DNA of 64,000 bases from Acidobacteriota bacterium (GCA_046726375.1 JBKPAJ010000062.1:2498-66497); one strand, 5' to 3'; shown: positions 653 to 59,488, counted from the stretch's first letter. Notes: generated by a model not told the origin, from the sequence alone. Numbers and translations: made by a program.

Positions 653-768
653 AAAAGGGCCTGCCCCATTAGTTACATTTCGAAAACAAACCCCGCACTT
701 CCTGCCGATTCGGGTCGCAGTATTCGCCAACTGTGCAACGCGATGTAACTAATGGGGCAGGCCCTTTT
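653..768. repeat. 116-nt element with perfect 25-nt terminal inverted repeats (copy 1 of 2)
   Basis: AAAAGGGCCTGCCCCATTAGTTACA (653-677) pairs perfectly with TGTAACTAATGGGGCAGGCCCTTTT (744-768). The interior is 66 nt. The second copy is at 56077-56194. The right end overlaps the stop codon of the 767-2008 gene. Confidence 0.85.
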
Positions 769-2008
769 AGGGTGTCAGCAGAATCTGCAGATCACCGACG
801 TTGGTGCTGGTGGGGCCCGTCCGGATCAGATCGCCGAGCGCATCGAAAAACGCGGACGAGTTGTTATCGTCCAAGTAGCTCTCGGGCGCATCAAGACCAA
901 GCTGGGCTGCGCGCGTCAGCGTGGTCGAATCAATCATCGCGCCAGCGGCGTCGGTTGGACCATCGATACCGTCCGTACCGACACTGGCGGCAACGGCATC
1001 GCGTCCAAGCCCGGCAAGCGCGCGGACCAACGCCAATGCAAACTCCTGATTGCGTCCGCCGCGGCCGTGGCCGGTCACGCGCACCGTGGTCTCGCCCGAC
1101 GAAATCACACAGAGGCGGGCGGCGTTCGCCACCCGCCCAACATACGCGAACCACTCGGCAGCGACCAGCCGCGCTTCGCCAGTAACCGGCTGCGTGATGA
1201 CCAGGGCACGATACCCAAGCTGCTCGGCCGCTGCACGCGCGCCGCGCATCGCGTCGACCCTGCTCGCAATTACGCCTGCCTCCGCGCGCGCGATTGCCGG
1301 ACTCCCGGGTTTCGGCGTGTCGGCGATATCACCTGCCAACCCCTTCTCCATCGTCACGCGCACCGAAGGAGGCTGATTCTGCTGATCGACGTGGCGATCG
1401 AGCGCAGCCGCCGCATCGGCCCAGGTGGAGGAATCCGGCACGCCGGGGCCCGATCCGATCACGGCGAGGTCGTCGCCGACGACGTCCGAAATCGCAAGCG
1501 TGATGGTGCGCCCTCGGCAGGCTGCGGCCAGGCGCCCGCCCTTCACTTCTGACAAATGCTTGCGAACAGTGTTGAGGGCATGAATGTCCGCGCCGCCGCG
1601 CAGCATCGCCTGCACGATTTGTTGTTTGTCGGCGAGGGCGATGCCGTGCATCGGTCGTGCGAGAAGGGCGGATGCGCCGCCGGAGAGGAGGATCACGAGC
1701 AAGCCATCTGGCGGAACCGCGCGTGCGATCTGCAATGCCCGCGCGGCTGCTTCCACGCTTCGTTCGTCGGGCACAGGATGACGCGCTTCGCGCCACTCGA
1801 CGACGGTCGGAAGATCGACATTGCGATGTGTGCCGACGGCGAGCGCTTGCACGGTTTTTATTTGCGGAATGGCGAACCACGCAGCCGTCATCGGCGCGGC
1901 CGCCTTGCCTGCCGCAATGAGATGAACGGTCGCAGTGGTTAGGTGCTCGAACTGGCCCTCATCGGCGAGGGCACGCGAGAGCGCAGCGGCAGCGCCGGCC
2001 GCACTCAC
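767..2008 (-). CDS. Glycerate 2-kinase / hydroxypyruvate reductase-like protein (DUF4147 + MOFRL family)
   Basis: 413-aa ORF with AAGKAAAPM near the N-terminus, LLSGGASALL, and SSGETTVRVTGHGRGGRNQEFALA, which is typical of TtuD/GckA-type glycerate kinases. Confidence 0.85.
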   Translation of the reverse strand: MSAAGAAAALSRALADEGQFEHLTTATVHLIAAGKAAAPMTAAWFAIPQIKTVQALAVGTHRNVDLPTVVEWREARHPVPDERSVEAAARALQIARAVPPDGLLVILLSGGASALLARPMHGIALADKQQIVQAMLRGGADIHALNTVRKHLSEVKGGRLAAACRGRTITLAISDVVGDDLAVIGSGPGVPDSSTWADAAAALDRHVDQQNQPPSVRVTMEKGLAGDIADTPKPGSPAIARAEAGVIASRVDAMRGARAAAEQLGYRALVITQPVTGEARLVAAEWFAYVGRVANAARLCVISSGETTVRVTGHGRGGRNQEFALALVRALAGLGRDAVAASVGTDGIDGPTDAAGAMIDSTTLTRAAQLGLDAPESYLDDNNSSAFFDALGDLIRTGPTSTNVGDLQILLTP

Positions 2009-2056
2009 ACCCGCACGGGCGATCGTGAGCAGATCCTGACGAGCGTGCGCGAGCGA

Positions 2057-2101
2057 CTGACTCAGTGTTGCCTGACTCGGTGTCGCCTCGCTCAGTGCGC
2101 C
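2057..2101. repeat. Three tandem 15-nt units
   Basis: CTGACTCAGTGTTGC / CTGACTCGGTGTCGC / CTCGCTCAGTGCGCC. The last unit overlaps the stop codon (2092-2094, minus strand). Confidence 0.75.
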
Positions 2102-2376
2102 TTATGCGGATCTGACCAGGCCGACAACTTCGTGACCACATCGATTTCCCGCAAAAGCTTCGCCACCACCTGATTGGCGTCTTCTTTTGCCGATAGCTTG
2201 TCGACCTGGGAAATGATGCGAACGAGGGCGGATTCGACGTCGTTGATGGCCTGTGCGGAGAAGAATTCCCGCTGCTGCTGGAGGCAGCGATGATGTTTCA
2301 GAAACTCTTCTTTGTAGAACTCAATCAGCGGCGAACTGGGCGACGGACCTGGACGATCGATAAAGGGTCGCGGCAT
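2092..2376 (-). CDS. Hypothetical small protein (possible independent gene within the 2092-2652 ORF)
   Basis: An internal ATG (complement of 2374-2376) is preceded by AAAGGAccgt. The product is MPRPFIDRPG...EFYKEEFLKHHRCLQQQREFF...VAKLLREIDVVTKL, which looks helical. No family recognised. The upstream part of the long ORF is FtsX C-terminal sequence. Confidence 0.3.
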   Translation of the reverse strand: MPRPFIDRPGPSPSSPLIEFYKEEFLKHHRCLQQQREFFSAQAINDVESALVRIISQVDKLSAKEDANQVVAKLLREIDVVTKLSAWSDPHKAH

Positions 2377-2496
2377 ACGGTCCTTTGAAGCCCTCACGAT
2401 TGTGGAGACAATTTCAGTGTAAGAACTTCGAGAGGCCGTGTCAACGGCGAGGCCCGAAAAATCGGGTGTTTCGACCGATCGTTCAACGAACGGCAC

Positions 2497-3371: not shown

Positions 3372-3418
3372 CACTGCCAGGTCCGCTCCGTGGTTTCCGG
3401 TTCGGGCTCGCCGGGCAT

Positions 3419-6492: not shown

Positions 6493-6504
6493 CACCACTG
6501 GACG

Positions 6505-9231
6505 TTACGTGAGCAGATCGGCTTTCCACAACCGCTCCCGCACGGAGGTGAAGAACGCCCAGGTCGCGAGCGCCACGGGAATCGCAATAACGAGGAAGGT
6601 CGCGCCCAGATACCACGCCGACGATTCGGTGGTTGCGGGGGCCACGAGCAGCAGATCGGCTACAAGAACGCCGACGGTCAACGTGGTGAGCCCCCAGCGC
6701 AGGACGGCAATCGCGGACATGGCGAAGTACAGAAAACTCGTCGCGCCTTCGATCAGCGGTGTTCGGCTATCGAGCGCGTCGAGCAGACCGAAGATGAACG
6801 CAAACACGATCGCGGCGGCCCACTGATTGCGCAGGAGAACGCGAAGCAGAAACAACAAAAAGAAGACGAAGAGCGCGTTGCGGACGGCATAAAGCGCATG
6901 CATCACGATCTCACCGGCAGAACTTCTCAAGCCAAGCAGCAGTTCGAGTGGCGGCCAACCGGCTTGATCGGTCCACAGAATCGTGCTCCTGACCAGCAGC
7001 GCAGTGGCCACACCCAGCGCGACGCCAAACAGAACGTCGCGTCCCACGATAGGATCGCGAACGCGTCCGCCGAGCACCGTGGTCCACGACACGAGCGTCT
7101 GGGGCCAGTAACGCCGCACGAACGGTTCGAGCGCGAGATAAGTAGACCAGAAGAGCGCGCCATAGAACACCGTCGTGACAATGGCGAGAAGAAAAATCCC
7201 GAGCATCGACGTGGAGGCGACGAAATGCGCCTGGCAGATCCAGAGCACCCACAGAGCGGCCACGATTGACGTGGCGAGCTGCAAGGCGCCGCGCTGGTCA
7301 CCTCGCCGCTCGCGCAGGTTCTTGCGCGCGAGCAGCGTGCCGCCGATCACCACCGTGAGCGCGAGAGCGAAGATGACGACAAGCATCGCGGTCTCGCCGT
7401 CGCTGCTGTTGGTGGCCATCCGCCACGGCTTCGTCCAGGGACCGATCAGGTGAAACGCGACCGGCCGGCCGTCGAGCGACGCGCCTTCGATGCGCAACGG
7501 CAACATCGTGCCGGGCCACGTGCCGGTCCACGCGATACGCGCATCAGCAGCCGCGAGCCAGTGCCACTCTGGCGTCGCCGGCTGCAACGACGCCGCGTCG
7601 AGACCCGCCATCTTGAGCAGCATGGTCCAGTCCACGGTCACAGATTGTTCTGTCGCTTGCTGAACCTGCGGCGGAATCGCTTCCAGCGCAGTCAGGAATC
7701 CTTGATGATCGAGCGTGAGCTGGATCTGATTCGAGTAGATTGGCGGGGGGTCAAGCGCGTCGACGAGACCTGGCGTCAGCAGATCGTGATGAAACTGGAA
7801 CCCAATCATCGCGAACGGGCTTCGCCGATATCGGAAGACGAGCGGGGACGGTCGCTGTGATAGAAGCGCACGCCACGGCAACGCGTTGCGCGAATCGCGA
7901 CTGAAATCGATCAACGAGTCGTCCCAGCCAAACCAGTAGGCTTCGTCCTGCGGGCGGTCGGCGTAGCCGATCTGGCGCAGCGCGTCCCGCGCTTTTTGCG
8001 CGAGGACGTCGGCGTTGTATTCCGGTCGCAGACCTTCGAGCGGGCTCGTGCGCAGCGCCATCCCGTACGAAGCAGCGACGCCAAGCAGGATCGCAATGAA
8101 GACCGGAACCGCCACGCGCCCACGCAGGCCGGCGCCTTCCCCCGCCGCCGCAACGATCTCGGGTGACGGGGTCTCGCCCGCCGCCAGCGCCGCGGCCAGC
8201 GGATCGCCTCCAGGCAGCGCGGCTGACAGCGCCAGCGCCGTTGACGGACGCCGTGCGGGATCAGGATCGAGACAACGAAGCATCGCACGCTCGATGGCAG
8301 GATCGAGCGCGGTCACGATCTCACTCGGCGGCGTGAGACGGCCGCCTTGATGCTGCTCGATCAACTCGTTGAGCGTGGTCGCACTGAACACCCGCCGTCC
8401 CGTGAACAACTCGTAGAGCACGAGGCCAAGCGCGTAGATGTCGCTGCGCGCGGTGACCTCGCGCCCGAGGAGCTGCTCCGGCGCCATGTACGCCGGCGTG
8501 CCGGCGCGAATGTTGTCGACCGATCCCGCTGCGGCAAGGCCGAAATCCATCAGGCGGACCTTGCCGGTGTCGTCGAGCATCACGTTTGCGGGTTTCAAGT
8601 CGCGGTGAACGACACCGCGCTCGTGCGCCGCGGCAAGACCGGCGCACAGCTGCCGCGCGATCTCGGTGGCTTTGTCTTCCGGAAACCTGCCGATGCGCCG
8701 CAGCGAGGTCGAGAGATCCTCGCCAGCGACAAATTCCATCGAAAGAAAAAGGCGACCGTCGACTTCGCCGATGTCGTACACGCGGCAGATGTTGGGATGT
8801 GAAACCTGACGCGCGGTGCGCACTTCGTTGTGAAACTGCGCCAGGCGCACCGCGTCACTGCCAACGCTGTCGGGAAGGAACTTCAGTGCGACCGGCTGAC
8901 CGAGGCGAAGGTCGTCAGCGCGATACACCTCGCCCATCCCACCGCGTCCGAGTAGACCGACGATCCGGTAGCGACCGTCGAGCACGGCGCCGGGCGGAAA
9001 CCGGCCGTGGCTGATGGAATCGGAGGATGTCAGCCAGCCGCCCGAACTGGATTTGTGACCGGAAGGCGGCGATGGACGTGCCAGAGCGTCGGCCGCGGCC
9101 GCGGCCGCTGGCGCGAACGTCCGCTCTTCTAGCGCAGCCAGGGTCGCTTCGTCTGCATCCACCGCCAAGCCGCAGGCGGCGCAGAATCGCGCTTGCGCAG
9201 GCACTGTGGCGCCGCACCGAGGGCACGACAT
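6505..9231 (-). CDS. Ser/Thr protein kinase with N-terminal zinc ribbon and C-terminal multi-pass membrane domain
   Basis: MSCPRCGATVPAQARFCAACG, then LGRGGMGEVYRA, HRDLKPANVML, DFGLA and GTPAYMAPE (Hanks kinase motifs). The C-terminal third is hydrophobic. Confidence 0.9.
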   Translation of the reverse strand: MSCPRCGATVPAQARFCAACGLAVDADEATLAALEERTFAPAAAAAADALARPSPPSGHKSSSGGWLTSSDSISHGRFPPGAVLDGRYRIVGLLGRGGMGEVYRADDLRLGQPVALKFLPDSVGSDAVRLAQFHNEVRTARQVSHPNICRVYDIGEVDGRLFLSMEFVAGEDLSTSLRRIGRFPEDKATEIARQLCAGLAAAHERGVVHRDLKPANVMLDDTGKVRLMDFGLAAAGSVDNIRAGTPAYMAPEQLLGREVTARSDIYALGLVLYELFTGRRVFSATTLNELIEQHQGGRLTPPSEIVTALDPAIERAMLRCLDPDPARRPSTALALSAALPGGDPLAAALAAGETPSPEIVAAAGEGAGLRGRVAVPVFIAILLGVAASYGMALRTSPLEGLRPEYNADVLAQKARDALRQIGYADRPQDEAYWFGWDDSLIDFSRDSRNALPWRALLSQRPSPLVFRYRRSPFAMIGFQFHHDLLTPGLVDALDPPPIYSNQIQLTLDHQGFLTALEAIPPQVQQATEQSVTVDWTMLLKMAGLDAASLQPATPEWHWLAAADARIAWTGTWPGTMLPLRIEGASLDGRPVAFHLIGPWTKPWRMATNSSDGETAMLVVIFALALTVVIGGTLLARKNLRERRGDQRGALQLATSIVAALWVLWICQAHFVASTSMLGIFLLAIVTTVFYGALFWSTYLALEPFVRRYWPQTLVSWTTVLGGRVRDPIVGRDVLFGVALGVATALLVRSTILWTDQAGWPPLELLLGLRSSAGEIVMHALYAVRNALFVFFLLFLLRVLLRNQWAAAIVFAFIFGLLDALDSRTPLIEGATSFLYFAMSAIAVLRWGLTTLTVGVLVADLLLVAPATTESSAWYLGATFLVIAIPVALATWAFFTSVRERLWKADLLT

Positions 9232-9249
9232 CGGGAGATTCTATGGGAA

Positions 9250-9328
9250 AGTTACAAGTTCAAAGTTCAAAGTTCAAAGTGAAGAACGCTCCAACTAACT
9301 TTGAACTTTGAACTTTGAACTTGTAACT
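9250..9328. repeat. AT-rich heptamer-periodic palindrome, (GTTCAAA)n / (TTTGAAC)n, copy A
   Basis: AGTTACAAGTTCAAAGTTCAAAGTTCAAAGT (9250-9280) pairs perfectly with ACTTTGAACTTTGAACTTTGAACTTGTAACT (9298-9328), with a 17-nt loop. It lies 1 nt from the gatB stop codon. Confidence 0.9.
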
Positions 9329-9329
9329 G

Positions 9330-10778
<1,449 letters not shown>

Positions 10779-10784
10779 CGTGGT

Positions 10785-10890
10785 CAGTTCAAAGTTCAAA
10801 GTTCAAAGTTCAAAGTGAGTTTTAAAGTTCAAATTGGGAACTCAAAAACTTCTCAACTAACTTTGAACTTTGAACTTTGAACTTGTAACT
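10785..10890. repeat. AT-rich heptamer-periodic palindrome, (GTTCAAA)n, copy B
   Basis: The left arm is CAGTTCAAAGTTCAAAGTTCAAAGTTCAAAGT. The right end, CAACTAACTTTGAACTTTGAACTTTGAACTTGTAACT, is identical to copy A. It touches the pckA stop codon (10890-10892). Confidence 0.9.
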
Positions 10891-12488
10891 TACACCTGCG
10901 GTCCCGCCTTTATCACCGCAGGATCCACGTCCGCTTCAAACGTCTTGAAGTTCTCGATGAACATCGACGCCAGCTTTCGCGCCTGCGCGTCGTAGGCATC
11001 CTTCTCGGACCACGTGCTGCGTGGATCGAGCACTTCGGTCGGGACGTCGAGGCAACTGCTCGGCACTTCGACATTGAAAATCGGGTGCCGCTGATAACCG
11101 ACATCGTCGAGCGTGCCGTGCAAGGCCGCGGTGATCATCGCCCGCGTGTAAGCGATCTTCATCCGCGTGCCGACGCCGAAGGGCCCACCCGTCCACCCGG
11201 TGTTCACCAGCCACACGCGTGCGCCGTGGCGCGCGATGCGCTCGCCCAGTCCGCGCGCATACACATTCGGATTCAGCGGCAGGAACGGCGCGCCAAAGCA
11301 CGTACTGAACGTTGCAGTGGGATCCTTGACGCCCTTCTCTGTGCCCGCGACCTTGGCGGTGTATCCGGACAAGAAGTGATACATCGCGCCTTCCGGCGAA
11401 AGCCGCGCAATCGGGGGCAGCACGCCAAACGCATCGGCTGTGAGCATCACGATATTTCGCGGATGGCCGCCCATGCCCGATGGCACCGAGTTGTCGATGA
11501 AATCGATTGGATAGGCGCCGCGCGTGTTCTCCGTCAGAGACGCATCGTCGAAATCGAGCTCCCGTGTTTCGGGGTCCATGACCACGTTCTCGAGCACGGT
11601 GCCGAAACGCCGCGTCGCTTCGAAAATCTGCGGCTCCGCTTCCTGCGAGAGTCGAATCATCTTCGCGTAACAGCCGCCTTCGAAATTGAAGACGCCGTGA
11701 TCGCTCCAGCCGTGTTCGTCGTCGCCAATCAGACGCCGCTGCGGATCGGAGGACAACGTTGTCTTGCCCGTGCCCGACAAGCCGAAGAACAAGGCCGTGT
11801 CGCCGGCGGTCCCGATGTTGGCCGAGCAGTGCATCGACAGCACGTTCTTGAGCGGCAGGATGTAGTTGAGCACCGTGAAGATCGACTTCTTGTTCTCGCC
11901 CGCGTAGCTCGTGCCGGCGATCAGCACCTCGCGCGTGCCCAGATTCAGCACGATCCCGACCTCCGAACGCGTGCCGTGTTTCGCCGCGTCGGTCTTGAAG
12001 CCCGGCGCCGTCAGCACCATGAACTGTGGCTCGAAACCAGTGAGGTCCTGCTGGGGCGGAACGATGAAGAGGTTGCGGACGAACAGGTTGTGCCAGGCAA
12101 GCTCCTGAACGAAACGCACGGGCAGGCGATATGACGGGTCTGCGCCCGCATACAAATCCTGCACGTAGAGCTCTTTCGACGACAGATACGCGAGCATGTC
12201 GCGCTTGAGCGTATCGAACTTCGGCTGCTCGATCGGTTTGTTCACCTTGCCCCAATGCACATGACCTTCGCTCGAGGGTTCTTTGACGAAAAATTTGTCA
12301 TTCGGCGACCGGCCCGTGTGGGCGCCGGTCCCGCAAACCAGGGGCCCGTCTTTGGCGAGCTCACCTTCGCCACGCCGGACGGCGTGTTCGTAAAGCGCCG
12401 CGGCGGACAGATTCCAATGAATCGGGCCGGACGTCCGCAAGCCGTGCTGCTCCAAGCCGCGCGCGTGTCCTGCCTGCACGATGCTCAT
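10890..12488 (-). CDS. pckA: Phosphoenolpyruvate carboxykinase (ATP)
   Basis: 532 aa with GAHTGRSPNDKF and FFGLSGTGKTTLS (kinase-1a). Collinear with ATP-dependent PckA. Confidence 0.95.
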   Translation of the reverse strand: MSIVQAGHARGLEQHGLRTSGPIHWNLSAAALYEHAVRRGEGELAKDGPLVCGTGAHTGRSPNDKFFVKEPSSEGHVHWGKVNKPIEQPKFDTLKRDMLAYLSSKELYVQDLYAGADPSYRLPVRFVQELAWHNLFVRNLFIVPPQQDLTGFEPQFMVLTAPGFKTDAAKHGTRSEVGIVLNLGTREVLIAGTSYAGENKKSIFTVLNYILPLKNVLSMHCSANIGTAGDTALFFGLSGTGKTTLSSDPQRRLIGDDEHGWSDHGVFNFEGGCYAKMIRLSQEAEPQIFEATRRFGTVLENVVMDPETRELDFDDASLTENTRGAYPIDFIDNSVPSGMGGHPRNIVMLTADAFGVLPPIARLSPEGAMYHFLSGYTAKVAGTEKGVKDPTATFSTCFGAPFLPLNPNVYARGLGERIARHGARVWLVNTGWTGGPFGVGTRMKIAYTRAMITAALHGTLDDVGYQRHPIFNVEVPSSCLDVPTEVLDPRSTWSEKDAYDAQARKLASMFIENFKTFEADVDPAVIKAGPQV

Positions 12489-15339: not shown

Positions 15340-15798
15340 ATGAATATGTCCCGTAAGTTGTTTGTTTGTCTCACGTTGTCTTTGCTGGCCTTCGTCATCG
15401 GGGCGCCCGCGGCCGCGGCTCAGAGCTTCAAATGGTGGAAGGACGAACGCTTCGTCAAGGAGCTGGTGCTCACGCCTGATCAGAGCTCCCGGATCGAAGC
15501 CATCTTCCAGGCTGTGCAGCCGGCGCTCCGTGCGCAGAAGCGCGCGCTCGATAAGCTCGAGGATGAACTCTCGAACATGATTCACGACGCCAAAGTGGAC
15601 GAACCCGAGCTCGAACAGTTCGTCGGCCGCGTCGAAGCTGCGCGCGCGGATTTGAGTAAAACCCGAACCCTCATGCTGGTGCGGATGCGCCGCATCCTCA
15701 CCGCGGAGCAAAGCACGAAGCTGCATCAGCTCTTCGAGAAGGACGAAAAGCAGCATGGCCGCCCTCGTCCGCATGGCTCGGATCGGAAGCAGCGGTAA
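15340..15798 (+). CDS. Periplasmic Spy/CpxP-family (LTxxQ) protein
   Basis: Signal peptide (MNMSRKLFVCLTLSLLAFVIGAPAAAAQ), LTPDQ and LTAEQ motifs, helical composition. Confidence 0.7.
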   Translation: MNMSRKLFVCLTLSLLAFVIGAPAAAAQSFKWWKDERFVKELVLTPDQSSRIEAIFQAVQPALRAQKRALDKLEDELSNMIHDAKVDEPELEQFVGRVEAARADLSKTRTLMLVRMRRILTAEQSTKLHQLFEKDEKQHGRPRPHGSDRKQR

Positions 15799-15820
15799 CT
15801 CCTTCAATTCGGAACGGAAT

Positions 15821-17658: not shown

Positions 17659-19242
17659 ATGCGGAAATTTGTAGCGATTGGCGTCGTCGCCGTCCTTGTC
17701 GCCGGAGCGGCCGTCTACTTCGGATTCCTGCGGCGCGAGGAGGCAGCAGCGGCTGCCGGCACCCAGGCCGATGGCGGCCAACGTGACGGGCAAGGTGGTC
17801 GTGGCGGACGGGGCGGCGCACAAGGCCAGGGCGGAGTTCCGGGCGGGGGGTTTGGCGGCGGGATGGGCGGTCCGGGCGGCGGCTTCCGGCCTCCGATGAC
17901 CGTGGAAATCACGAAGGTGTCGCGCGGCAACGTCTCGGCGTTATTGACCGTTGTAGGCAACCTGATCGGAGAGCAGACCGTCGACGTCGTCCCGCGGGCA
18001 GCCGGCCGCATCACGGCGCTCAGCGTCAAGCTCGGCGATCGCATTCGCCGGGGACAGGTGCTGGCGAAAATCGAGGATCGCGAGCTCGTCGAGCAGGTGC
18101 GCCAGGCGCAGGCCTCGCATCAGGTTGCGGAAGCCACGATTCGTCAGCGGGAGGCCGATCTCAATCTCGCGGAAACCAACGTCGAGCGCTCGCGCAATCT
18201 GTTCGGCCGTCAGTTGCTGCCCAAGCAGACGCTCGACGACTCCGAAGCGCGCTACATATCTGCGGTCGCGGCGCTCGACCTCGCGCGCGCCCAGCTCGCG
18301 CAATCGGAGGCGCGACTCGAGGAGCTCAAGATCAACCTGGCCAACACCAACGTAATCTCTCCGGTGGATGGCTTCGTGAGCCGCCGTAATCTCGATGTTG
18401 GTGCCTTTGCCTCGCAAAACCAGCCGGTCGCGTCGGTGGTCGATATCTCGTCGCTCCGGCTCGTGGCCAACGTCGTGGAAAGGGATTTGAAAGCTGTCAA
18501 CGTCGGCGACCGCGCGCAGGTCGAAGTGGACGCTTTCCCGGGCGAAAAGTTCAGCGGCCGTATCGCGCGCCTGGCGCCGGTGCTCGATCCATCGACGCGC
18601 ACGGCGCCGATGGAAATCGAGATTCTCAATCCCCAGTTTCGACTCAAGCCCGGTATGTACGCGCGCGTCGATCTCACGGTCGAAGACAAGCAAAACGCGC
18701 TCGTCGTGCCGAAGATCGCGCTCATCGATTCGCAAGGCGAACGCGGCGTGTACCAGCCGAGCGAAGACGGCCGCGCGAAGTTCAAGGCGGTCAAGGTTGG
18801 GATCGAGAACAACGATCAGGCCGAAATCCTCGAGGGCCTGACTGAGGGTGAAGTGATCGTTTCAACGGGCGCGAGCGCGCTTCGCCGCGACGATCAATTG
18901 GTGATTGCCGGCGGGGCCTCCGGCGGGCCGGGCGGCCGCGGCGGACGTGGCGGACGCGGCAATCGCGGCGAAGGATCCGGCGCGTCAGGCGGCCGCGGAA
19001 CGCCGTCTGATCCTGGCGCGGGCGCAGGTGCGGCGGGCGCCCTTGGACAGCGCCAACCGGGCCAGGGGTTGACGCGGCCCGAGGGTCAGCCCGGTGAGGG
19101 AATTCAACGCGGTGATGGACAACGCGGCGGTCGCGGTCGCGGGCAGCGTCCGGAAGGCAGCGGGCAGCAGGACGGACAAAATCCCGCCGGCCGGCGTCCG
19201 CCTCAAAGCCAGAGCCTCGAGCAACAGCGACCAATAGCGTGA
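17659..19242 (+). CDS. RND efflux periplasmic adaptor (MFP/HlyD family) with Gly/Arg-rich extensions
   Basis: MRKFVAIGVVAVLVAGAAVYF anchor; VVPRAAGRITALSVKLGDRIRRGQVLAKIED (lipoyl-like); ISPVDGFVSRRNLDVGAF; coiled-coil hairpin. RGG-type low complexity at both ends. Confidence 0.9.
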   Translation: MRKFVAIGVVAVLVAGAAVYFGFLRREEAAAAAGTQADGGQRDGQGGRGGRGGAQGQGGVPGGGFGGGMGGPGGGFRPPMTVEITKVSRGNVSALLTVVGNLIGEQTVDVVPRAAGRITALSVKLGDRIRRGQVLAKIEDRELVEQVRQAQASHQVAEATIRQREADLNLAETNVERSRNLFGRQLLPKQTLDDSEARYISAVAALDLARAQLAQSEARLEELKINLANTNVISPVDGFVSRRNLDVGAFASQNQPVASVVDISSLRLVANVVERDLKAVNVGDRAQVEVDAFPGEKFSGRIARLAPVLDPSTRTAPMEIEILNPQFRLKPGMYARVDLTVEDKQNALVVPKIALIDSQGERGVYQPSEDGRAKFKAVKVGIENNDQAEILEGLTEGEVIVSTGASALRRDDQLVIAGGASGGPGGRGGRGGRGNRGEGSGASGGRGTPSDPGAGAGAAGALGQRQPGQGLTRPEGQPGEGIQRGDGQRGGRGRGQRPEGSGQQDGQNPAGRRPPQSQSLEQQRPIA

Positions 19243-19380
19243 GTTCAAAGTTCAAAGTTAGTTGGGGAAGTTAACGAGTTGAGTTGGCAAGGTCAGTTGC
19301 GAAGTAGTTGGAACGACTTGTTCGAACTTACAACTTTCAACTTGGAACTAACTTTTAACGTTGAACTTTGAACTGTAACT
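19241..19380. repeat. Degenerate heptamer-periodic palindrome, copy C (20 heptads in register)
   Basis: GAGTTCA AAGTTCA AAGTTAG ... GTTGAAC TTTGAAC TGTAACT. The left half is AGTT-rich and the right half AACT-rich. It starts on the MFP stop codon and ends 15 nt before the RND pump ATG. Confidence 0.8.
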
Positions 19381-22300: not shown

Positions 22301-22539
22301 ACCGCCTGCGACCGATTCTGATGACGGCGGGCTGCACCATGCTGGGTCTGGTGCCGATGTCGCTGGGGATCGGCGAAGGCTCCGAGCTGCAGGTGCCGCT
22401 CGCGCGCGTCGTCATCGGCGGCCTGCTCACGTCGACGTTGATCACGCTGGTCTTCGTGCCGGCGATGTACACGTTGTTCGAGGAAGGCTGGCGCGGCATT
22501 TTTAAGCGCGCTCAGCCTGCCGGCGGAACCGCGCAGTAG
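19396..22539 (+). CDS. RND (HAE1/AcrB-type) efflux transporter permease
   Basis: 1047 aa, beginning MSIPRLAIHRPVTMFMISFVVILLGAISLGRLPVDLMPE. It has the 12-TM plus two large periplasmic loop layout and the conserved GGYTLNTMTFGGLALGIGMIVD. Confidence 0.95.
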   Translation: MSIPRLAIHRPVTMFMISFVVILLGAISLGRLPVDLMPESEFPSITVRVNYQGVGPLEMEELVTRPVEQAVSAIAGLEQVNSTSSEGNSNVRLQFAWGTDLSEAADEVRTRIDRIRARLPEDADAPTVFKFDSNAMPIMGIGVEGDYDPVTLREMAQNELSPRLERAEGVASVTIDGGLRRQIRVDLSKERVTAMNLPVDRIVQSIRSENENIPLGEVEDADRRFLLRSPGQYKDIDDIKNLIVFTRGDVPVPVYLKDIANVYDGTEDRRNVTRINGRPGVRMRVQKQSGKNTVLVAQAVKREIERINQEVPGVRLSVLDDQSKFIERAINSVKEHAAIGCVLVVVIIFLFLRNVRSTMIICTSIPISVIGTFALLYFGGYTLNTMTFGGLALGIGMIVDAAIVVLENTYRHLEMGKDRMTAAIDGSEEVWSAILASTLTHIAVFVPMLFLTGVSSIMFGQLAAVVSFSLAMSLFVAVTIVPVLCSRFLDPPDHGEGRKGVLGSVYRFSDHVLVGIDRLYARFLHAALAHRPTVFATGAVLFAIALVLLQRVGFELQPITDEGEVTVDAELAVGTRIERTEEVLILLEERIRELVPEATMLITSANGGGGMGGGGFGGGGNRGNVNVRLVPKDERRRSSEQIAMALRRDLAGLPGVIVRARPSGGQQMRGMPGGGGQNQDGRFAVEIRGHDLEESRRVAQDVKTLLDSTPGIADSRVGREEGRPEIAVIVDRDKAALFGMTVTGVANTIRTNLAGTQAAMFREGGNEYPIVVRLREEDRNELASVGDVLIDTPKGQVLPARSVMATSREQGPVQIERKNQERIQRVNAEVETTLSQAVDAVRARLGELQLPREFSAGFGNEVEEQARSFRELQLVLILAIVLVYTVMASQYESLRDPFIIMFSIPLAAIGVVGALLLTNTPFSMQAYIGVIMLAGIVVSNAILLVDYANTLRHRDKMPVRPAIETAGRHRLRPILMTAGCTMLGLVPMSLGIGEGSELQVPLARVVIGGLLTSTLITLVFVPAMYTLFEEGWRGIFKRAQPAGGTAQ

Positions 22540-22613
22540 AACCAAGAGCGAGAACCAAGAACGAAATCTCGCCCAGCCCGAAGCTCGAACCGTTGAGCGA
22601 GCGAAGGCCGGAC

Positions 22614-23105: not shown

Positions 23106-23201
23106 TCAGCTCTCAGCTCTCGGCTCTCAGCTCTCAGCGCGGAGCTTTCAGCTTTACAAGTGCTTTTGCTGACAGCTGAAAGCTGAGCGCTGACCGCTGA
23201 A
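23106..23201. repeat. Heptamer-periodic palindrome, (TCAGCTC)n / (AGCTGAR)n
   Basis: Seven left units (TCAGCTC TCAGCTC TCGGCTC TCAGCTC TCAGCGC GGAGCTT TCAGCTT), a 19-nt centre, and four complementary right units. It fills exactly the spacer between the stop at 23202-23204 and the folK ATG at 23105. Confidence 0.85.
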
Positions 23202-24178: not shown

Positions 24179-24245
24179 ATCTGCGTTTCATCTGCGTTCC
24201 CATCTTTTCTCATCTGCGTTCCCATCTGCGTTCCACCCGCGTCCC
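24179..24245. repeat. Six tandem 10-12-nt direct repeats (ATCTGCGTTCC-type)
   Basis: ATCTGCGTTTC ATCTGCGTTCCC ATCTTTTCTC ATCTGCGTTCCC ATCTGCGTTCC ACCCGCGTCCC. The array ends on the stop codon of the permease gene (24245-24247). Confidence 0.8.
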
Positions 24246-26788
24246 TATTCCGCGCGGAGCGTGGCCAGTGGCTTGCGCTGCAGCACTTCCCAGGACGCCA
24301 TCACGCCAACCGCCGCCACGAGCAACGCGCTCACGGCGATGCCGCTCGCGCTCACCAGCGGCAGCGCGCGCCACGGAATATCGAGCGCGAAGCGGCTGAT
24401 GCCCCAGGTCAACGCGATCGCGCCGAGCGAACCAATCGTGCCGGCGAGCGCGCCCAGTACGCCGTATTCGAGCAGCAGCACGCTGGCAATCATGCCGCGC
24501 GTGGCGCCAAGGGTCTTGAAGATCGCCGCTTCGTAGATGCGCCGGAACTTGGTCATGGCGACGGCGCCGACCAGGATCAACAGCCCGCTGAACATCACCA
24601 GCGTGCCGACCACGGTGACCGCCAGCGTGACGTTGTCAATCACGGTGCGGATGGCGTTGAGCATTTCGCGGCCATCGATGACCGAAACGTTGGGATATTT
24701 CGCCACGAGCTCGCCCTGGAGCGCGGCCCGCGTCCGCGGCTCATCGGGGCCGCGGAAGAACGAGATCGCGCCGTGCGGCGCGTTCTCGAACAGGCCCGGG
24801 CGGAACACGAACATGAACCCGCCGGCGCGGCTGTCGGACCACTCGACATGGCGCACGCTCGTCACGCGCGCGCTGATCGTCCGGCCCATCACGTCGAAGC
24901 GCATCGCGTCGCCGACGTTGATCCGGAAGCGCTCGCGGAGCGATTCTTCGATCGAGACCTCGCCAACGTCAGCAGGGTCAACAGCGCCCGCCGTCTTGTC
25001 CCAAAACTTACCTGCGACCACTTTCTCGTTCCGCTCCAGCGACGGTCGATAGGTAATCGTGTATTCGCGTGCCAGCGAGCCGCGGCCGCGCACGTCCTCG
25101 TAATTCTCGAGTGCCACTTCCGTGCCCTCGATGCCGGTGACACGAGCACGCAGGACCGGTATCACCCGGACGTCGGTTCCCGGCCGCTTGTACCTTTCGA
25201 GGAGCGATCGCACGCCGGCGGACTGATCCTGCTGGATGTCGAGCAGAAACATATCCGGCGACTCGGGAGAAATGTTGACCGTGAACTCGCGGATGAGACT
25301 TTCCTGCAGCGAGCGCACGCCGACGATGAAGAAGCTGCCAAGGCCGACGGCGAGAAGCACAATACGCGCCTGGCTGCCCGGGCGACTGAGCTGCAGCACC
25401 GCATGGCGTAGCGCGAACCAGCGCGTATGTGCAAGCGGCGCGATGGCCTTGATCAGGAGAATGCCGGCGAGGTGAAGAATCGCAGCCGTCGCCGCAAACC
25501 CGACCGCGACAACGAGGCCGACGCGTAGCGATCCCGCCTGCCACACCGTGAGCGCGACGAGACCGACGACGACAACCAGCGTGATGACGATCTGAAGCAG
25601 GTCGGGCCTCCGCGACGTCTGTTCTGCTCGCAGCAGTAACGACGGCTTGACGTGCCGGACGTCCAGCAACGGCACCATCGAGAAGAGAACGGCAACTAGC
25701 AGCCCGATGCCAAATCCCTGCAGTACCGCAGGCCCGGTCAGGCCGTAGTTCACGATGACTCCGGGCGTAGCCGCGGCCGCCAGCGTCGAAGGAATGGCGC
25801 GAATCGCCACGCCGGCGAGCACCACGCCAAACGCACTGCCGGCGATCCCGAGCGCGATCACTTGCGCCATATAAATCGCAAGCAACTGCCACGATCGTCC
25901 ACCGACACACTTCAGAATCGCGATGCTGCGGATTTTCTGCTGCACGAATACGCGCGTCACGCTCGACACGCCAATGCCGCCCAGAATCACGATCACCAGG
26001 CCGACGAGGCTCAGATAGTTCTCCGCTCTCGTGAAGTCTTCGCCGATGTCGTCTTCCGTCGCCTTGTACGACCTCACTCGCGCAAACGAGTTCCGGAAAT
26101 CGCCGCGCAGTCGCTGCACGAGCGCATCCAACTGATCATTCGGAACCTTCAGCAGGCGCTGATAGCTCGCACGGCTCCCAAAACCAAGCAGCCCAGTCTG
26201 GCGAAGATCCGCGAGATCGACAAACACACGCGGCCCGAGGCTGAACGCGCCCAGCCGCCGGCCAGGCTCCGCTTCGATGACGCCGCGGACCGTGAACTCG
26301 TGCTTGCCGATCATCAACCGATCGCCGACCGTCATCCCGAGTTGCGCCAGCAATTCGGGACGGACCAGCGCGCCGAAGTTGCGGAGCAGCCCGTGGTGAA
26401 AGGGCTGGCCTTCGAGCTTCAGCGCGCCGTAGAACGGAAAACCCTCCTCGACGGCGCGCAACTCCACCATGCGCGCGACTCCAGTGCGGTCCACCGGCCT
26501 CACCATCGTCCCGACTTCGACCGACGAGACGCTCGTTGCCCGGGCCTCACCCAGGCGTTGGTCGATCGTGCGCGTGAGGTCGTCCGTGAACGGCCGGTTG
26601 CTCGAAATGATCGCGTCAGCGGTCAGAAGCGATCGTGCTTCGCCATCGAACACCGCGCGCACACTCTGAATGACCGATCTGATCGCGACGATCGCGCCGA
26701 CGCCGATTGAAAGGCACAGGAAGAAAAACAGCAGCCGGCGCCACGAGGCGCGCATTTCGCGCAGCGTCATCGCGGCAATGAAGCTCAC
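24245..26788 (-). CDS. ABC transporter permease with two FtsX-type domains (YbbP/MacB-like)
   Basis: 847 aa with a duplicated 4-TM FtsX-domain pattern. It is translationally coupled (GTGA) to the upstream ATPase gene. Confidence 0.9.
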
Positions 26789-28193: not shown

Positions 28194-28200
28194 TCTTTGA

Positions 28201-33856: not shown

Positions 33857-33978
33857 CCACTACACGGTTCGGAAGGCCTGCGCGGATTGCGCGGAGTACG
33901 CGGAACGGGGAACGGCAAATTGCACCGATTTGGATTCGAAGGACTGCGATCTCGCAAACCGTGACTTGAGATCGATAT

Positions 33979-40570: not shown

Positions 40571-40705
40571 GTAGCGGCGGACCTCGATGTCCGCCGGACC
40601 CCTTGCAGCCTGCATGTAGCGGCGCATGCAGCCCTCATGTAGCGGCGGACCTTGAGGTGCGCCCGACCGGCGCGGCTTCATGTCGCGGCGGACTTTAGGC
40701 TCGGC
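40571..40705. repeat. Cluster of four GTAG-headed REP-like palindromic units
   Basis: GTAGCGGCGGACCtcgatGTCCGCCgg (40571), GTAGCGGCGCATGCAG (40616), GTAGCGGCGGACCTTGAGGTGCGCC (40639), GTCGCGGCGGACTTTAGG (40682). The cluster lies between convergent genes. Confidence 0.65.
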
Positions 40706-46313: not shown

Positions 46314-46479
46314 CTAGTCCCCTGGAAACGAGAGGCGTTGCATAAGTCCCGGAGCGCGGCGCCCGGATCGCAAGGCGCGCCGACCGCGCATGTTGCGCAT
46401 ATGCAAGGGAGAAGCAACGCCCCGAGCCGGGATGCCCCGCCCGAGAATTATGCGATGCCTCTCGTTTCCAGGGGACTAG
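46314..46479 (+). other. ~166-nt imperfect long inverted repeat / candidate structured RNA
   Basis: The 23-nt perfect arms are CTAGTCCCCTGGAAACGAGAGGC and GCCTCTCGTTTCCAGGGGACTAG. The pairing is extended by GTTGCATAA:TTATGCGAT and GTCCCGG:CCGGGAT, which is possible only with G-T (G-U) pairs on the plus strand. Two internal hairpins are present. Confidence 0.4.
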
Positions 46480-49957: not shown

Positions 49958-50041
49958 TGCCGGGGGCGGGGATCGAACCCGCACGGCCTTGCGGCCTCAG
50001 GATTTTAAGTCCTGTGCGTCTGCCAGTTCCGCCACCCCGGC
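49958..50041 (-). tRNA. tRNA-Leu (anticodon UAA)
   Basis: The minus strand reads GCCGGGG TG GCG GAACTGGCAGA CGC A CAGGA CTTAAAA TCCTG AGGCCGCAAGGCCGTG GCGGG TTCGATC CCCGC CCCCGGC A. It folds into a full cloverleaf with a long variable arm. CCA is not encoded. Confidence 0.9.
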
Positions 50042-50821: not shown

Positions 50822-51203
50822 CGATCGATCTTCGGACGAGCGCACATGGGATGATTGTCCAATCGGATCTGCGATCCCAAATCTACAATCTGCAATCGCT
50901 GTCTCCGCCAAGCTCTCCCAGACGCTCCACGTCAAAAGGACCGACTGACGGCCAACTGAAGAATCGCGGCGGAGTCGAGCTGACGGTTCGCGAGGTGCCG
51001 ATAGATCTGGTGGCGGCTTGGACGCCGAATCGCGGCCTGAGGCGAAAATCGATCGTTGCCAGCGGCACCGTAAGGTCGGTGCGCTCGTCGAGCGGATTGG
51101 CGCAGGCCGCTCACGTTTGCGCAAACGAGCTCGCGGCAGTGCCGAAGACCCAACACCACCGCGAGAATCGAGAGTTGCAATCGAAGTCATTATTGCGCAT
51201 CCT

Positions 51204-56073: not shown

Positions 56074-56076
56074 CGC

Positions 56077-56194
56077 AAAAGGGCCTGCCCCATTAGTTAC
56101 ACTTCAGACTCACACTTCGCAACTTCTGCCACACTCGCGTGGAATTTCTGCCAACTCTGCAACGCGGTGTAACAATGGGGACAGGCCCCTTTTT
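56077..56194. repeat. Terminal-inverted-repeat element, copy 2
   Basis: The left arm is identical to copy 1 (AAAAGGGCCTGCCCCATTAGTTACA, 56077-56101). The interior is the same 66-nt length. The right arm is degenerate (TGTAACAATGGGGACAGGCCCCTTTT). The element lies between the stop at 56195-56197 and the start at 56073. Confidence 0.85.
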
Positions 56195-57076
56195 TCACGT
56201 CGTCGCGGGTGACGCTTCGCCGGCGATCTGCGCGTGCTTGAGGGCGGCGGCGCGCAGCCGCGCGTATGCCGCCGTCATCTCCACGCCGTACAGCAGAATG
56301 ACCGCGGAGACGTAAATCCACAGGAGAAAGATCACCACCGCCGCGATCGAGCCGTGAATGAGGTTCCACGCAGCCAGGTCGCGCGCGTACCAGGAAAACG
56401 CGGCCAACGCGCCGCGCCACAGGAGTCCGGTCACGATCGCACCCGGCCACACATCGCGGAACCGCATATCGGTGTTGGGGATGAAATAAAAGAGCAGCGC
56501 CACGCAGCCGATGAGGAGCGCCGTTGCGCCGTAATCCGCGCTGTTCTGCGTAATCCACACGAACCACCGATTACGTTCGAGCACGCCCCAGAGCCAGTGC
56601 GTTGGCGCGATGCGGGCGACGCTCGCAAGCGCCAGGGCGATCATGAAAATCGCGCCGGCCGACAGCATCATCAAAAACGAGACGAAGCGGTGCATCAGGA
56701 AGCTGCGGCGTTTCTGCACGCCCCAGGCGTGATTGACCGCCGAGGAAATGGCGTTGAACACGCCCAGCGAGGCCCACATCAGCGCCAGCAATCCGCCGAC
56801 GCCGAGTTGCACCGTCTGGCCGCGAAAAGCGTCGAGCTGCCGCGTCATGAAATCGAACTGGCGTGGAAAGTAGTGGAAGACGAACCCGACCACGGCGTCG
56901 CGGTCCGACGCGTCGCTGGTGAACGACCCGAGAATCGACAGAATCAGCAGGATGAACGGGAATAGCGAGAGCAGCGCGTAATACGCGATCGAAGCTGCGT
57001 GGGTGAGACCTTCGCTGTTATACAGCTCACCCACGCCGCGCCAAGCTGCTTGGAGAACCAGCCGAAGCGGTTTCAC
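56195..57076 (-). CDS. YihY/BrkB-family membrane protein
   Basis: SEGLTHAASIAYYALLSLFPFILLILS... with a six-TM pattern typical of YihY/virulence factor BrkB. Confidence 0.85.
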   Translation of the reverse strand: MKPLRLVLQAAWRGVGELYNSEGLTHAASIAYYALLSLFPFILLILSILGSFTSDASDRDAVVGFVFHYFPRQFDFMTRQLDAFRGQTVQLGVGGLLALMWASLGVFNAISSAVNHAWGVQKRRSFLMHRFVSFLMMLSAGAIFMIALALASVARIAPTHWLWGVLERNRWFVWITQNSADYGATALLIGCVALLFYFIPNTDMRFRDVWPGAIVTGLLWRGALAAFSWYARDLAAWNLIHGSIAAVVIFLLWIYVSAVILLYGVEMTAAYARLRAAALKHAQIAGEASPATT

Positions 57077-57108
57077 ACCTCACATTATGTTTCACACCTC
57101 TCATTATG
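57071..57108. repeat. 19-nt tandem duplication spanning a stop/start junction
   Basis: TTTCACACCTCACATTATG / TTTCACACCTCTCATTATG, with one mismatch. It contains the YihY GTG start (57074-57076) and the YtxH TAA stop (57104-57106). Confidence 0.85.
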
Positions 57109-57334
57109 CGGTGCGTTGCCAGCCCGATTGCGACCCTCGAATCTCGGCCACGCCACTCCGGACCTGATCGATTGCGCCCAGGAACTTTTCCGCCTCGCGG
57201 GCAAGGCCATCGAAGTTCGCCTCGAGCTGCTCGCGGAGCTGCCGGCCTTCGTCGGTAAAGAACAGGTATGACGCCGTCACGCCGACCACGGCCCCGATGA
57301 TGCCGCCTGCTATCAGAGTGTTTTGATTGCTCAC
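57104..57334 (-). CDS. YtxH-domain protein
   Basis: MSNQNTLIAGGIIGAVVGVTASYLFFTDEGRQLREQL..., the Gly-rich TM plus helical tail typical of YtxH. Confidence 0.7.
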   Translation of the reverse strand: MSNQNTLIAGGIIGAVVGVTASYLFFTDEGRQLREQLEANFDGLAREAEKFLGAIDQVRSGVAEIRGSQSGWQRTA

Positions 57335-58872: not shown

Positions 58873-58882
58873 AGTCTATCAG

Positions 58883-59338
58883 TTAGCTGGCCTTCCGCAC
58901 GGGAACGTTGCGCAGTAACGCATCGCGTAGCGTGGCGGCGGCCGCATTGCTCCCGCTGGCGTTTCCACTCACGACGTCGTTGGACGTGAGCGGCTGCCCG
59001 TAGAACCGAGTATTGGCATCGCGGTCTTCAGCGACCGACGATCCGTTGAGCGTCGCGCCCGCGAAAAGCCCCCGGCTGCGCGAGCAGCTCAGGATCTCGG
59101 AGCGGATCTGAATCTCAGTGCTCGCGCTGGCTTCACGCCCGGCGGGCCCGGCCGTCGCCGAGGCTTCCCCGCCGATTTTGAATTCGTTGCACAGGCGGTT
59201 CTCCACGCCGCGGCGTTCATCACCACGAGAACAAGTAATACCGACGAAGTCATAGCATGCAAGAGGCCGCGGCCGTGTTGGCGCGGCCTGACTGCTGAGC
59301 GCGGCAATCAGAACACCTGTTGCCCAAATCCGCACCAT
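58883..59338 (-). CDS. SYLF (Ysc84-like) domain protein, short form
   Basis: FKIGGEASATAGPAGREASASTE...SRSRGLFAGATLNGSSVAEDRDANTRFYG matches the C-terminal half of SYLF domains. The region after the signal peptide is shorter than I would expect. Confidence 0.6.
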   Translation of the reverse strand: MVRIWATGVLIAALSSQAAPTRPRPLACYDFVGITCSRGDERRGVENRLCNEFKIGGEASATAGPAGREASASTEIQIRSEILSCSRSRGLFAGATLNGSSVAEDRDANTRFYGQPLTSNDVVSGNASGSNAAAATLRDALLRNVPVRKAS

Positions 59339-59360
59339 TGCCTCTCGGGGTTGCGGAGAG

Positions 59361-59488
59361 CCGGGGTTCCTGGATTCCGGGGTTCGAGATTTCGAGTTCC
59401 TGGATTCCTCAGTTCCGAAGTTCGGATGAACCTCGGAACCTCGGAACCCTCCGAACCTTGGAACTTTGGAACCTCGGAACTTCGGAAA
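59361..59488. repeat. Octamer-periodic palindrome, (NNNNTTCC)n / (CYTYGGAA)n
   Basis: The left half is GGGGTTCC TGGATTCC GGGGTTCG AGATTTCG ... TCAGTTCC GAAGTTCG. The right half is CCTCGGAA CCTCGGAA CCCTCCGAA CCTTGGAA CTTTGGAA CCTCGGAA CTTCGGAA. It ends 1 nt before the stop at 59490-59492. Confidence 0.8.

Follow-up and report, generated by a model that had tools for sequence, protein, structure and literature searches.

Repeat elements abutting stop codons in a Vicinamibacterales genome: probable recent additions to tight gene junctions

Ten repeat elements in a 64,000-nt stretch of an Acidobacteriota genome (GCA_046726375.1, JBKPAJ010000062.1:2498-66497; referred to here as the window, with positions counted from its first letter) sit on, or directly next to, the stop codon of the upstream gene. 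We consider it probable, though by no means certain, that these elements are recent gains of DNA at gene junctions whose ancestral length was close to zero, and that their placement at the stop mainly reflects the limited number of bases that can be interrupted there. A preliminary description of the window had reported the placement of these ten repeats and had located all of them between genes of the same strand; inspection of the sequence and of the gene map bears out each of the ten coordinate relations, and all ten spacers are indeed co-directional. Each element either contains the upstream stop or is 0-1 nt away from it; the hairpins leave 0-22 nt before the next annotated start, and the direct arrays leave 35-132 nt. 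This stop rule is already known in kind (Rehm et al., 2015; PMC4692102); what is new is the phylum, the A/T-rich and highly diverse units, a range of junctions from empty through nascent to full, and the conservation of the stems.

The window has a G+C content of 63.6% and originates from a Vicinamibacterales genome. Its PEP carboxykinase matches an NCBI protein exactly, and the closest relatives with a name are MAGs of Vicinamibacterales or Acidobacteriota. Two contigs of the assembly GCA_046729875.1 align to it with 99.94-99.98% identity, and the GatB protein is not identical between the two assemblies. Gene calls and Pfam hits were taken from GCA_046729875.1 to yield a map of 58 features, each start and stop codon of which was verified in the window sequence. 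Tandem repeats were located with Tandem Repeats Finder (TRF), and hairpin folding was expressed as a z-value relative to 200 shuffled sequences. For comparison, we used loci with the same gene order from relatives whose PckA proteins are 92-94% identical (L204, L205, L206) and from relatives with protein identities of 82-85%, one genome contributing L207 and L208 and a second one L210. L209 represents a 92% relative, and the loci L054 and L083 also stem from a 92% relative.

The ten elements fall into three classes: five hairpins whose arms are built of tandem 7-8-nt units, two copies of a 118-nt palindrome, and three direct tandem duplications.

Element 1: 652-769, minus strand, 118-nt palindrome copy 1 with perfect 27-nt arms (TAAAAGGGCCTGCCCCATTAGTTACAT) and a 64-nt interior, z -7.4
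Element 2: 2057-2102, minus strand, direct 15-mer tandem, 3.1 copies, with the TGA stop of the upstream gene (2092-2094) in the first unit
Element 3: 9248-9328, minus strand, AGTTCAA hairpin between gatB and a Ser/Thr kinase gene, perfect 31-nt arms, z -8.5
Element 4: 10783-10893, minus strand, AGTTCAA hairpin between pckA and gatB, z -9.1
Element 5: 19241-19380, plus strand, degenerate AGTTCAA hairpin between an RND membrane-fusion gene and acrB, z -4.6
Element 6: 23106-23201, minus strand, hairpin with arms of the heptamers TCAGCTC/GAGCTGA, z -4.7
Element 7: 24179-24247, minus strand, direct 12-mer tandem (GGAACGCAGATG, about 5 copies) that starts at the MacB TAG (24245)
Element 8: 56077-56194, minus strand, 118-nt palindrome copy 2, arms about 80% matched, z -5.6
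Element 9: 57070-57108, minus strand, direct 19-mer tandem, 2.1 copies, with the YtxH TAA (57104) in unit 1
Element 10: 59361-59488, minus strand, hairpin with 8-mer arms (TTCCGAGG/CCTCGGAA type), z -3.6

TRF reported a period of 7 nt at 9248-9328, 10786-10891, 19242-19374 and 23106-23201, and a period of 8 nt at 59428-59487. The seven hairpin-type elements have folding z-values of -3.6 to -9.1, with at most one of the 200 shuffles folding equally well, and the folding of the three direct tandems (15-, 12- and 19-mer) is not significant relative to shuffles. Three of the five tandem-arm hairpins (9248-9328, 10783-10893 and 19241-19380) belong to one dispersed AGTTCAA family and carry the common end motif GTTACAAG...CTTGTAAC.

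The TAA stop codon of the glycerate-kinase gene (767-769) provides the first 3 nt of an arm of element 1, whose stem ends 11 nt before the ATG at 640; the second copy of this palindrome (element 8) adjoins the BrkB TGA (56195) and ends 3 nt before the ATG at 56073. No further copies of the palindrome were present in the collected loci. Element 3 is positioned 1 nt from the gatB TAA (9330) and 18 nt from the ATG of the kinase gene, while element 4 has bases in common with the pckA TAA (10890) and ends 4-6 nt before the gatB ATG. At the 5' end of element 5 (TGA-GTTCAAAG), the A of the TGA codon (19240-19242) is shared; the element ends 15 nt before the ATG and spares a GGAG ribosome-binding site. 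Element 6 occupies the whole gap between a TAG (23202) and the folK ATG (23105) in an exact fit, and the base of its stem pairs stop-adjacent bases with the start codon. Element 10 lies 1 nt from the DUF5670 TGA (59490) and 22 nt from the Ysc84 ATG. An expanded orthologue of element 3 exists in L204; both the Ser/Thr kinase gene (window 6505-9231) and element 3 are missing from L206 and L207, and both the Ysc84 gene (window 58883-59338) and element 10 are missing from L210. Gene gain or loss coincides with the hairpin at the upstream junction at both of these sites.

The direct tandems incorporate the ends of genes. The TGA in the first unit of element 2 occupies the position taken by TGA or CGA in the later units, the 12-mer units of element 7, which leaves 132 nt to the dksA start, resemble the end of MacB (GCGGAATAG versus GCAGATGGG/GCAGATAAA), and unit 2 of element 9 offers GAGG and the GTG at 57076, the BrkB start by N-terminal homology. 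To judge from its two units, element 9 is a duplication of the whole tight junction, and the true start of BrkB is probably GTG 57076, inside the second unit. A stop codon is thus found within unit 1 in two of the direct tandems (elements 2 and 9), and arguably in the third, from which we infer that they arose by gene-end duplication. Element 2 is kept in the 92% relative L206 and is in frame with a conserved glycerate kinase N-terminal region (ATPSQ/ATLSQ); its purely intergenic status is doubtful, and it may be translated as the N-terminal part of the gene that follows. The N-terminal region conserved in the glycerate kinase (…RQDLLTIARAG…) is located at 2009-2101, upstream of the GTG at 2008 that is annotated as the start, within an open frame free of ATG, GTG and TTG, and this gene may accordingly either use a non-canonical start or be truncated. 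In comparison with the relatives, the starts of BrkB and probably of a GDSL lipase gene are annotated too far downstream (57034-57076; 28053-28200), so that two of the apparent spacers are shorter than they appear.

At 82-85% protein identity, the orthologous junctions are short and free of repeats, with lengths of 1-32 nt and one of 74 nt.

pckA-gatB: 2 nt in L207, 111 nt in the window
Membrane-fusion gene to acrB: 32 nt in L207, 153 nt in the window
Glycerate kinase to next gene: 14 nt in L207, 126 nt in the window
hyp164-folK: 10 nt in L208, 96 nt in the window
MacB-dksA: 74 nt without an array in L208, 198 nt in the window
BrkB-DsbH: 29 nt without a palindrome in L210, 121 nt in the window
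YtxH-BrkB: 1 nt (TGAcGTG) in L210, 69 nt as annotated in the window

In distant metagenomic relatives, the pckA-gatB spacer measures 0 nt (L126), -4 nt (L127) and 1 nt (L132). Other lineages carry two to four units of a different heptamer (ATCAGCA, CAATCNN) at this very junction, or full hairpins of further heptamers (GCNCAAT/ATTGNGC, CCAACNN).

A start-proximal block is conserved across the insert at three of the six compared junctions, namely 'tcggaga..ATG' in front of acrB, 'caatca' in front of the gene that follows the glycerate kinase, and about 62 nt in front of dksA; at the other three, no ancestral bases are recognisable. The empty site of element 1 in L207 reads TAActacaatcaacacaATG, and its 'caatca' is kept on the start side of the insert. 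The 32-nt spacer of L207 that corresponds to element 5 bears the same 'tcggaga' block before the ATG, and element 7 falls within an insert of roughly 125 nt between TAG(g) and the retained 'ccatcccgacc' together with the conserved block upstream of dksA. Since ancestral bases are visible on the start side at elements 1 and 7, the new DNA must have entered within 0-3 nt of the stop at these two sites. At all six junctions the new DNA begins 0-1 nt from the stop, with an available room of 1-32 nt, or of 11 nt ahead of the conserved block. As judged from these comparisons, the added DNA is lineage-specific and lies between an unchanged stop and the start-proximal block.

Three kinds of DNA would thus have been added: palindromes with 7-8-nt tandem arms, the 118-nt palindrome, and tandem duplications that cover either a complete junction or the final 12-19 nt of a gene. 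Where a junction is tight, interruption would be confined to the bases that separate the stop from the promoter or ribosome-binding block of the following gene, and this restriction would be the main reason why the elements begin at the stop. In the tandem duplications, the stop would lie in the first unit because a duplication that spans it leaves the reading frame and the protein unchanged. A hairpin would be a tolerated shape of insert, as the folded mRNA would keep the stop and the next start close to each other, and a ribosome terminating at the base of the stem would open it. The hairpins probably also serve as stop-proximal stem-loops of the transcript, be it as a 3'-end barrier, a processing site or a termination site; such a role would explain why stems are kept while loops drift.

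Unit numbers change quickly between relatives. The window, L204 and L206 have orthologous pckA-gatB hairpins; their spacers measure 111, 84 and 105 nt, respectively, the loops differ by large indels, and the pckA stop, either TAA or TGA, is always fused to the first unit. In a comparison of the window hairpin (10783-10893) with those of L204 (7600-7683) and L206 (4044-4148), the arms are identical at 63 of 64 positions in each case, while the 4-fold degenerate sites of pckA are 80% identical to L204 and 68% identical to L206. By a binomial estimate, the chance of at most one arm change at the neutral rate is about 1e-5 for L204 and 6e-10 for L206. This constancy reflects either selection on the stem or homogenisation by slippage, by templated repair between the arms or by conversion among family copies. 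The sense RNA folds better by more than 3 kcal/mol in four of the seven hairpins, and the antisense RNA is never ahead; the sense-strand advantage amounts to 11.6 kcal/mol for element 5 and to 12.4 kcal/mol for element 8, the two most degenerate hairpins. This bias of the predicted folds gives a weak hint at an RNA-level constraint. A function at transcript 3' ends or in coupling with the next gene, as proposed in the preliminary description, would be plausible and is hinted at by the conserved stems and the sense-strand folding bias only.

Expansion is also visible at other sites. The 12-mer array behind MacB is much longer in the 92% relative L209, and further AGTTCAA copies exist in L083. 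In L204, a 326-nt hairpin (624-949) with arm units of about 14 nt (GGTTCCTCACG.../...CGTGAGGAACC) fills the junction between the OEP and MFP genes; the corresponding junction of the window measures 68 nt and contains single copies of gttcctc and gtgagg. The L204 structure looks like an expansion of a simple hairpin. In L054 (16-170), an AGTTCAA hairpin forms the inner part of a longer perfect palindrome, which continues for 25 nt past the repeats on each side.

Heptamer arrays of this type are widespread. The 18-mer AGTTCAAAGTTCAAAGTT was found in more than 119 contigs of many phyla, often as part of a hairpin of the (AGTTCAA)n-loop-(TTGAACT)n type. This number is unremarkable because about 1,200 heptamer classes exist and 596 Gb were searched, and we rejected AGTTCAA as a special cross-phylum heptamer, given that the same loci hold dozens of others. 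AGTTCAA and its variants GGTTCAA, AGTTCCA and AGTTCGG form arrays or hairpins in the loci L005-L123, which represent Acidobacteriota, Verrucomicrobiota, Planctomycetota, Bacteroidota, Cyanobacteria, the Candidate Phyla Radiation, Chloroflexota, Latescibacterota and others; many of these loci carry several different heptamer hairpins. A reading frame of at least 80 codons ends between -3 and +9 nt of the 5' edge in 23 of 131 arrays (17.6%); for random positions, the proportion is 2.4%. As a rule, the first unit and the stop have bases in common (TGA-GTTCAAAG, TAA-GTTCAAAG, TAG-TTCAAAG), and in the opposite orientation most frames end on the TGA provided in all frames by (TTGAACT)n. An independent sample comprised 81 high-GC loci (524 kb) with crude gene calls derived from the G+C content of third codon positions. 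Its co-directional spacers contain 48 arrays or hairpins, with a median distance of 10.5 nt to the stop compared with at least 48.5 nt to the start; 33 of them are nearer to the stop and 14 are nearer to the start. Complementary paired arrays occur in these other loci too, and 12 of 12 paired-array hairpins start within 13 nt of a stop. Arrays are also present in 8 convergent and 12 divergent spacers of this sample.

Whether the repeats simply fill spacers of any kind, so that the stop is merely the nearest landmark, depends on the class of element considered. When uniform placement within the present spacers is taken as the null, the ten elements deviate from it with a Fisher combined p = 1.7e-4 (2.5e-4 when two exceptions discussed below are included), the hairpins alone with p = 0.025 and the direct arrays with p = 3.8e-4. 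The hairpins leave just 0-22 nt before the start, and once 20 nt before the start are reserved they have no slack left (p = 1), so that the present-day geometry of the hairpins says only that the spacer is filled; the independent sample behaves similarly, with p = 0.13 when 12 nt are reserved and 0.78 when 20 nt are. This, and the arrays in convergent and divergent spacers, speak for mere filling, an outcome that the preliminary description had itself named as fatal to its rule. It holds for the hairpins under this reservation, but the direct tandems with their 35-132 nt of slack (annotated starts) still sit on the stop (p = 1.4e-3), 16 of the 17 informative hairpins have the stop as the nearer of the two codons (6 versus 0 in the window, 10 versus 1 in the 524 kb of other loci), and gene ends are sevenfold enriched at array edges relative to random positions. 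The comparison with ancestral spacers also contradicts it: uniform insertion into the six ancestral spacers would place all inserts within 1 nt of the stop with a joint p = 1.7e-6, or 1.2e-3 with 12 nt reserved, under the assumption that unrecognisable ancestral bases were not simply lost. We therefore hold an explanation by short spacers only to be rather improbable. A residual stop-anchoring signal exists, which fits either a target preference or selection for a stop-proximal stem-loop.

A target preference would follow if the palindromes were non-autonomous mobile DNA whose machinery, encoded elsewhere, prefers a stop-like target (T-R-A followed by G). The dispersed AGTTCAA family, with its three window sites of common ends and its additional copies in L083, is consistent with such mobility, as are the fusion of the stop to GTT at almost every junction (TGA-GTTCAAAG, TAA-GTTACAAG, TGA-AGTTACAAG), the retention of ancestral bases on the start side only at elements 1 and 7, the position of both 118-nt palindromes on a stop, and the ancestral-spacer result with 12 nt reserved. 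We nevertheless find targeted insertion unlikely: all three stop codons (TAA, TGA and TAG) occur, the same placement is seen for plain tandem duplications and for unrelated hairpins that occur once (TCAGCTC, TTCCGAGG), different heptamers at the same junction in relatives point to local birth, a target-site duplication is not consistently found, and the Pfam hits of the window genes include no transposase or RAYT-like gene. The suggestion of the preliminary description that insertion is targeted to gene 3' ends stands in part, in that six empty sites and the stop in the first tandem unit argue for insertion or birth at gene ends, whereas the position of the hairpins is uninformative with 20 nt reserved. 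Possible, if doubtful, is that the stop-proximal stem-loops are selected mRNA elements that act as terminators without a U-tract, as barriers to 3' exonucleases or as devices for termination-dependent translation. Stems that are conserved well past synonymous sites while loops gain and lose bases, the sense-strand folding advantage via G-U pairs, the pairing of the stop region with the AUG in element 6, and the start of 7 of 7 window hairpins and 12 of 12 independent hairpins no more than 13 nt from the stop, whatever the distance to the next start, would all be accounted for; the 40 kb of the window that were scanned show no enrichment of canonical terminators over shuffles (15 versus 18.7 expected; 8 versus 14.3 expected), and transcripts of Xanthomonas start or stop at heptamer repeats more often than at controls (PMC4692102). 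Selection of this kind has to contend with the junctions of the 82-85% relatives, which lack the elements and work at 1-32 nt, and with sequences that differ by site and by lineage; moreover, a terminator would disrupt the operon wherever the two flanking genes overlap in relatives, and homogenisation may explain the conservation of the stems.

Several of these observations also weigh against the reading that we prefer, that of young additions to tight junctions. If geometry alone were at work, inserts should be found at any point of the free segment, but a reservation of 12 nt does not rescue the ancestral-spacer null, and elements 1 and 7, where ancestral bases can still be recognised, were inserted directly at the stop. 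The three AGTTCAA sites with the same end motif look copied rather than independently born in place, and gene calling in the independent sample is crude, with 89% precision on the window. As to the functional part of this reading, the heptamer hairpins are not followed by a U-tract, the elements are dispensable, being absent at 82-85% protein identity, and the conservation of the stems could reflect homogenisation among family copies.

Among known systems, the closest are the intergenic heptameric simple sequence repeats described by Rehm et al. (2015; PMC4692102), with the unit GGGAATC in Xanthomonas and GGGGAYT in Nostoc. Those repeats prefer co-directional spacers and the first bases past the stop, which they often overlap, and 70-75 inverted pairs per Xanthomonas genome are capable of forming a stem-loop (PMC4692102). 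The over-representation of heptamers was noted by Mrazek et al. (2007), as cited in PMC4692102. Our elements share with them 7-nt units in about three or more copies outside coding sequences, the co-directional preference, the placement at or overlapping the stop, the frequent inverted stem-loop pairs, and a length that varies between relatives at a site that is kept. They differ in the phylum, in the many different units within one genome, and in A/T-rich units without the quadruplex potential of the G-rich Xanthomonas and Nostoc repeats; empty ancestral junctions and stems conserved beyond neutral sites are described here and are not addressed in PMC4692102. TAACTGA direct repeats are found just upstream of start codons in Beggiatoaceae, cyanobacteria and Bacteroidetes, and the B. 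subtilis protein CspB binds heptamer repeats with one protein per unit (MacGregor, 2015; PMC4679880). Like these arrays and the short tandemly repeated repetitive heptamers of Calothrix, the window arrays are abundant intergenic heptamers of 2-6 units in distant phyla with a proposed mRNA role; the former are direct, start-proximal and dominated by one heptamer per genome, while the latter are inverted and sit on stops. A stop at the 5' foot of a stem and a start at its 3' foot, joined by the fold, also recall translational coupling by unmasking and the ribosome shunt of the cauliflower mosaic virus leader, although the shunt is a eukaryotic mechanism and the likeness is no more than an analogy. 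It is very unlikely, if conceivable, that the hairpins represent a widespread class of mRNA structures in which each 7-nt unit would be the site of one cold-shock-domain protein, downstream expression would depend on upstream termination by unmasking or re-initiation, and cold-shock-domain proteins would melt the stem and thereby switch the junction.

About half of the repetitive extragenic palindromic (REP) sequences of E. coli reportedly lie within 15 nt of a stop codon and lower the translation of the upstream gene, a finding ascribed to Liang, Rudd and Deutscher in 2015. The elements of the window resemble REPs, REPINs and bacterial MITEs (miniature inverted-repeat transposable elements) in being short dispersed palindromes of spacers that are transcribed with neighbouring genes (PMC3733652, PMC3116915), but their arms are tandem repeats, they lack a GTAG/CGTC tag and their copy number is low (2-3 per family in the window). 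All ten lack the conserved GTAG/CGTC head that identifies tagged REPs (Di Nocera et al., 2013; PMC3733652) and REPINs (PMC3116915), which are high-copy imperfect palindromes of 20-40 nt, and within the window such tags are restricted to the cluster at 40571-40705. Terminal inverted repeats and dispersed copies (two of the 118-nt element, three AGTTCAA sites) are shared with MITEs, but TA..TA flanks only copy 1 of the 118-nt element, and neither copy 2 nor the AGTTCAA copies have a consistent target-site duplication. Intrinsic terminators combine a short-looped, GC-rich stem of 5-20 pairs with a U-tract behind it. A consensus scan for them that covered elements 1-5 and 8-10 flagged none of these elements; the heptamer hairpins have A/T-rich stems without a subsequent T-run, and the 118-nt palindrome possesses a GC-rich foot followed by T4, but also a 64-nt interior. 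Integron attC sites were rejected, as the ends AGTTACAAG...CTTGTAACT do not fit the RYYYAAC...GTTRRRY cores, the flanks are syntenic housekeeping genes (pckA, gatB), and no integrase is present in the window. A scan of the window against Rfam at the gathering score returned a tRNA (49958-50041) as its sole match, and hence no family at any of the elements. A promoter in the 3' arm (TTGAAC-N17-TAACTT) remained below the scan threshold and was not flagged, and the resemblance of TAACTTTG to the Bacteroidetes -7 motif is on the wrong strand for elements 3 and 4. A missing Shine-Dalgarno motif is non-discriminating as a sign of coupling, since only 18 of 56 window genes have one.

The statement of the preliminary description that nearly every repeat starts at the upstream stop is fairly worded, although two repeats of co-directional spacers deviate from it (46314-46479 and 33879-33904). 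Its restriction of the rule to co-directional spacers fails, as a 13-mer tandem sits on the AcrB stop in a convergent spacer; co-directional junctions are the majority in the window, and the co-directional enrichment is no real contrast because they are simply the commonest kind. The further proposal that convergent spacers carry GTAG units instead is founded on one cluster and provides no real contrast either.

22537-22564, plus strand, 13-mer x2 (AGAACCAAGAACG) that starts on the AcrB TAG in a convergent spacer
33879-33904, plus strand, 9-mer x2.9 array, 22 nt past a stop, an exception to the rule
40571-40705, no strand assigned, four palindromic REP-like units with GTAG tags, clustered in a convergent spacer; the window has no other cluster of this kind
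46314-46479, no strand assigned, element of 166 nt whose inverted arms end in CTAG (CTAGTCCCCTGGAAACGAGAGGC...), 105 nt from the stop within a co-directional spacer of 465 nt, an exception to the rule

The two near-identical assemblies differ at few bases, five of which fall within the 166-nt element (46314-46479). None of the ten stop-anchored elements differs in copy number between these assemblies, whose differences are located elsewhere; one of them is a 15-nt indel (TTCGATTGCAACTCT, CGATT flanks) at about 51171-51185, in a convergent spacer that also contains a weak run of GCAGATT heptamers (about 50859-50902). The convergent acrB/folK spacer of the 85% relative L207 (59-158) harbors a textbook terminator with a GC-stem and a T-run; in the window, this spacer contains the 13-mer x2 and no GC-stem/T-run terminator. 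At window 15340-15798, an unannotated open reading frame of 152 amino acids corresponds in position and length to the Metal_resist/LTXXQ gene that L204 and L207 possess. The sister assembly, where JBKPHN010000176.1 gives way to JBKPHN010000104.1 at about window 15630, misses it.

Few features of bacterial spacers are as over-represented as heptameric repeats, and few are so little understood. The window provides a natural birth series for them, which leads from junctions of 0-2 nt through junctions of 20-30 nt with two to four units to hairpins of 80-330 nt, and it extends the stop-codon rule to the Acidobacteria and to A/T-rich units, with stems that stay constant while synonymous sites diverge by 20-32%. 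Starts and spacers around such elements are easily miscalled, which should be kept in mind when genomes of this kind are annotated. If selection accounts for the constancy of the stems, soil bacteria would possess in these elements a common but unannotated layer of post-transcriptional control; otherwise, the elements are a useful marker of how small a part of a bacterial gene junction can change freely.

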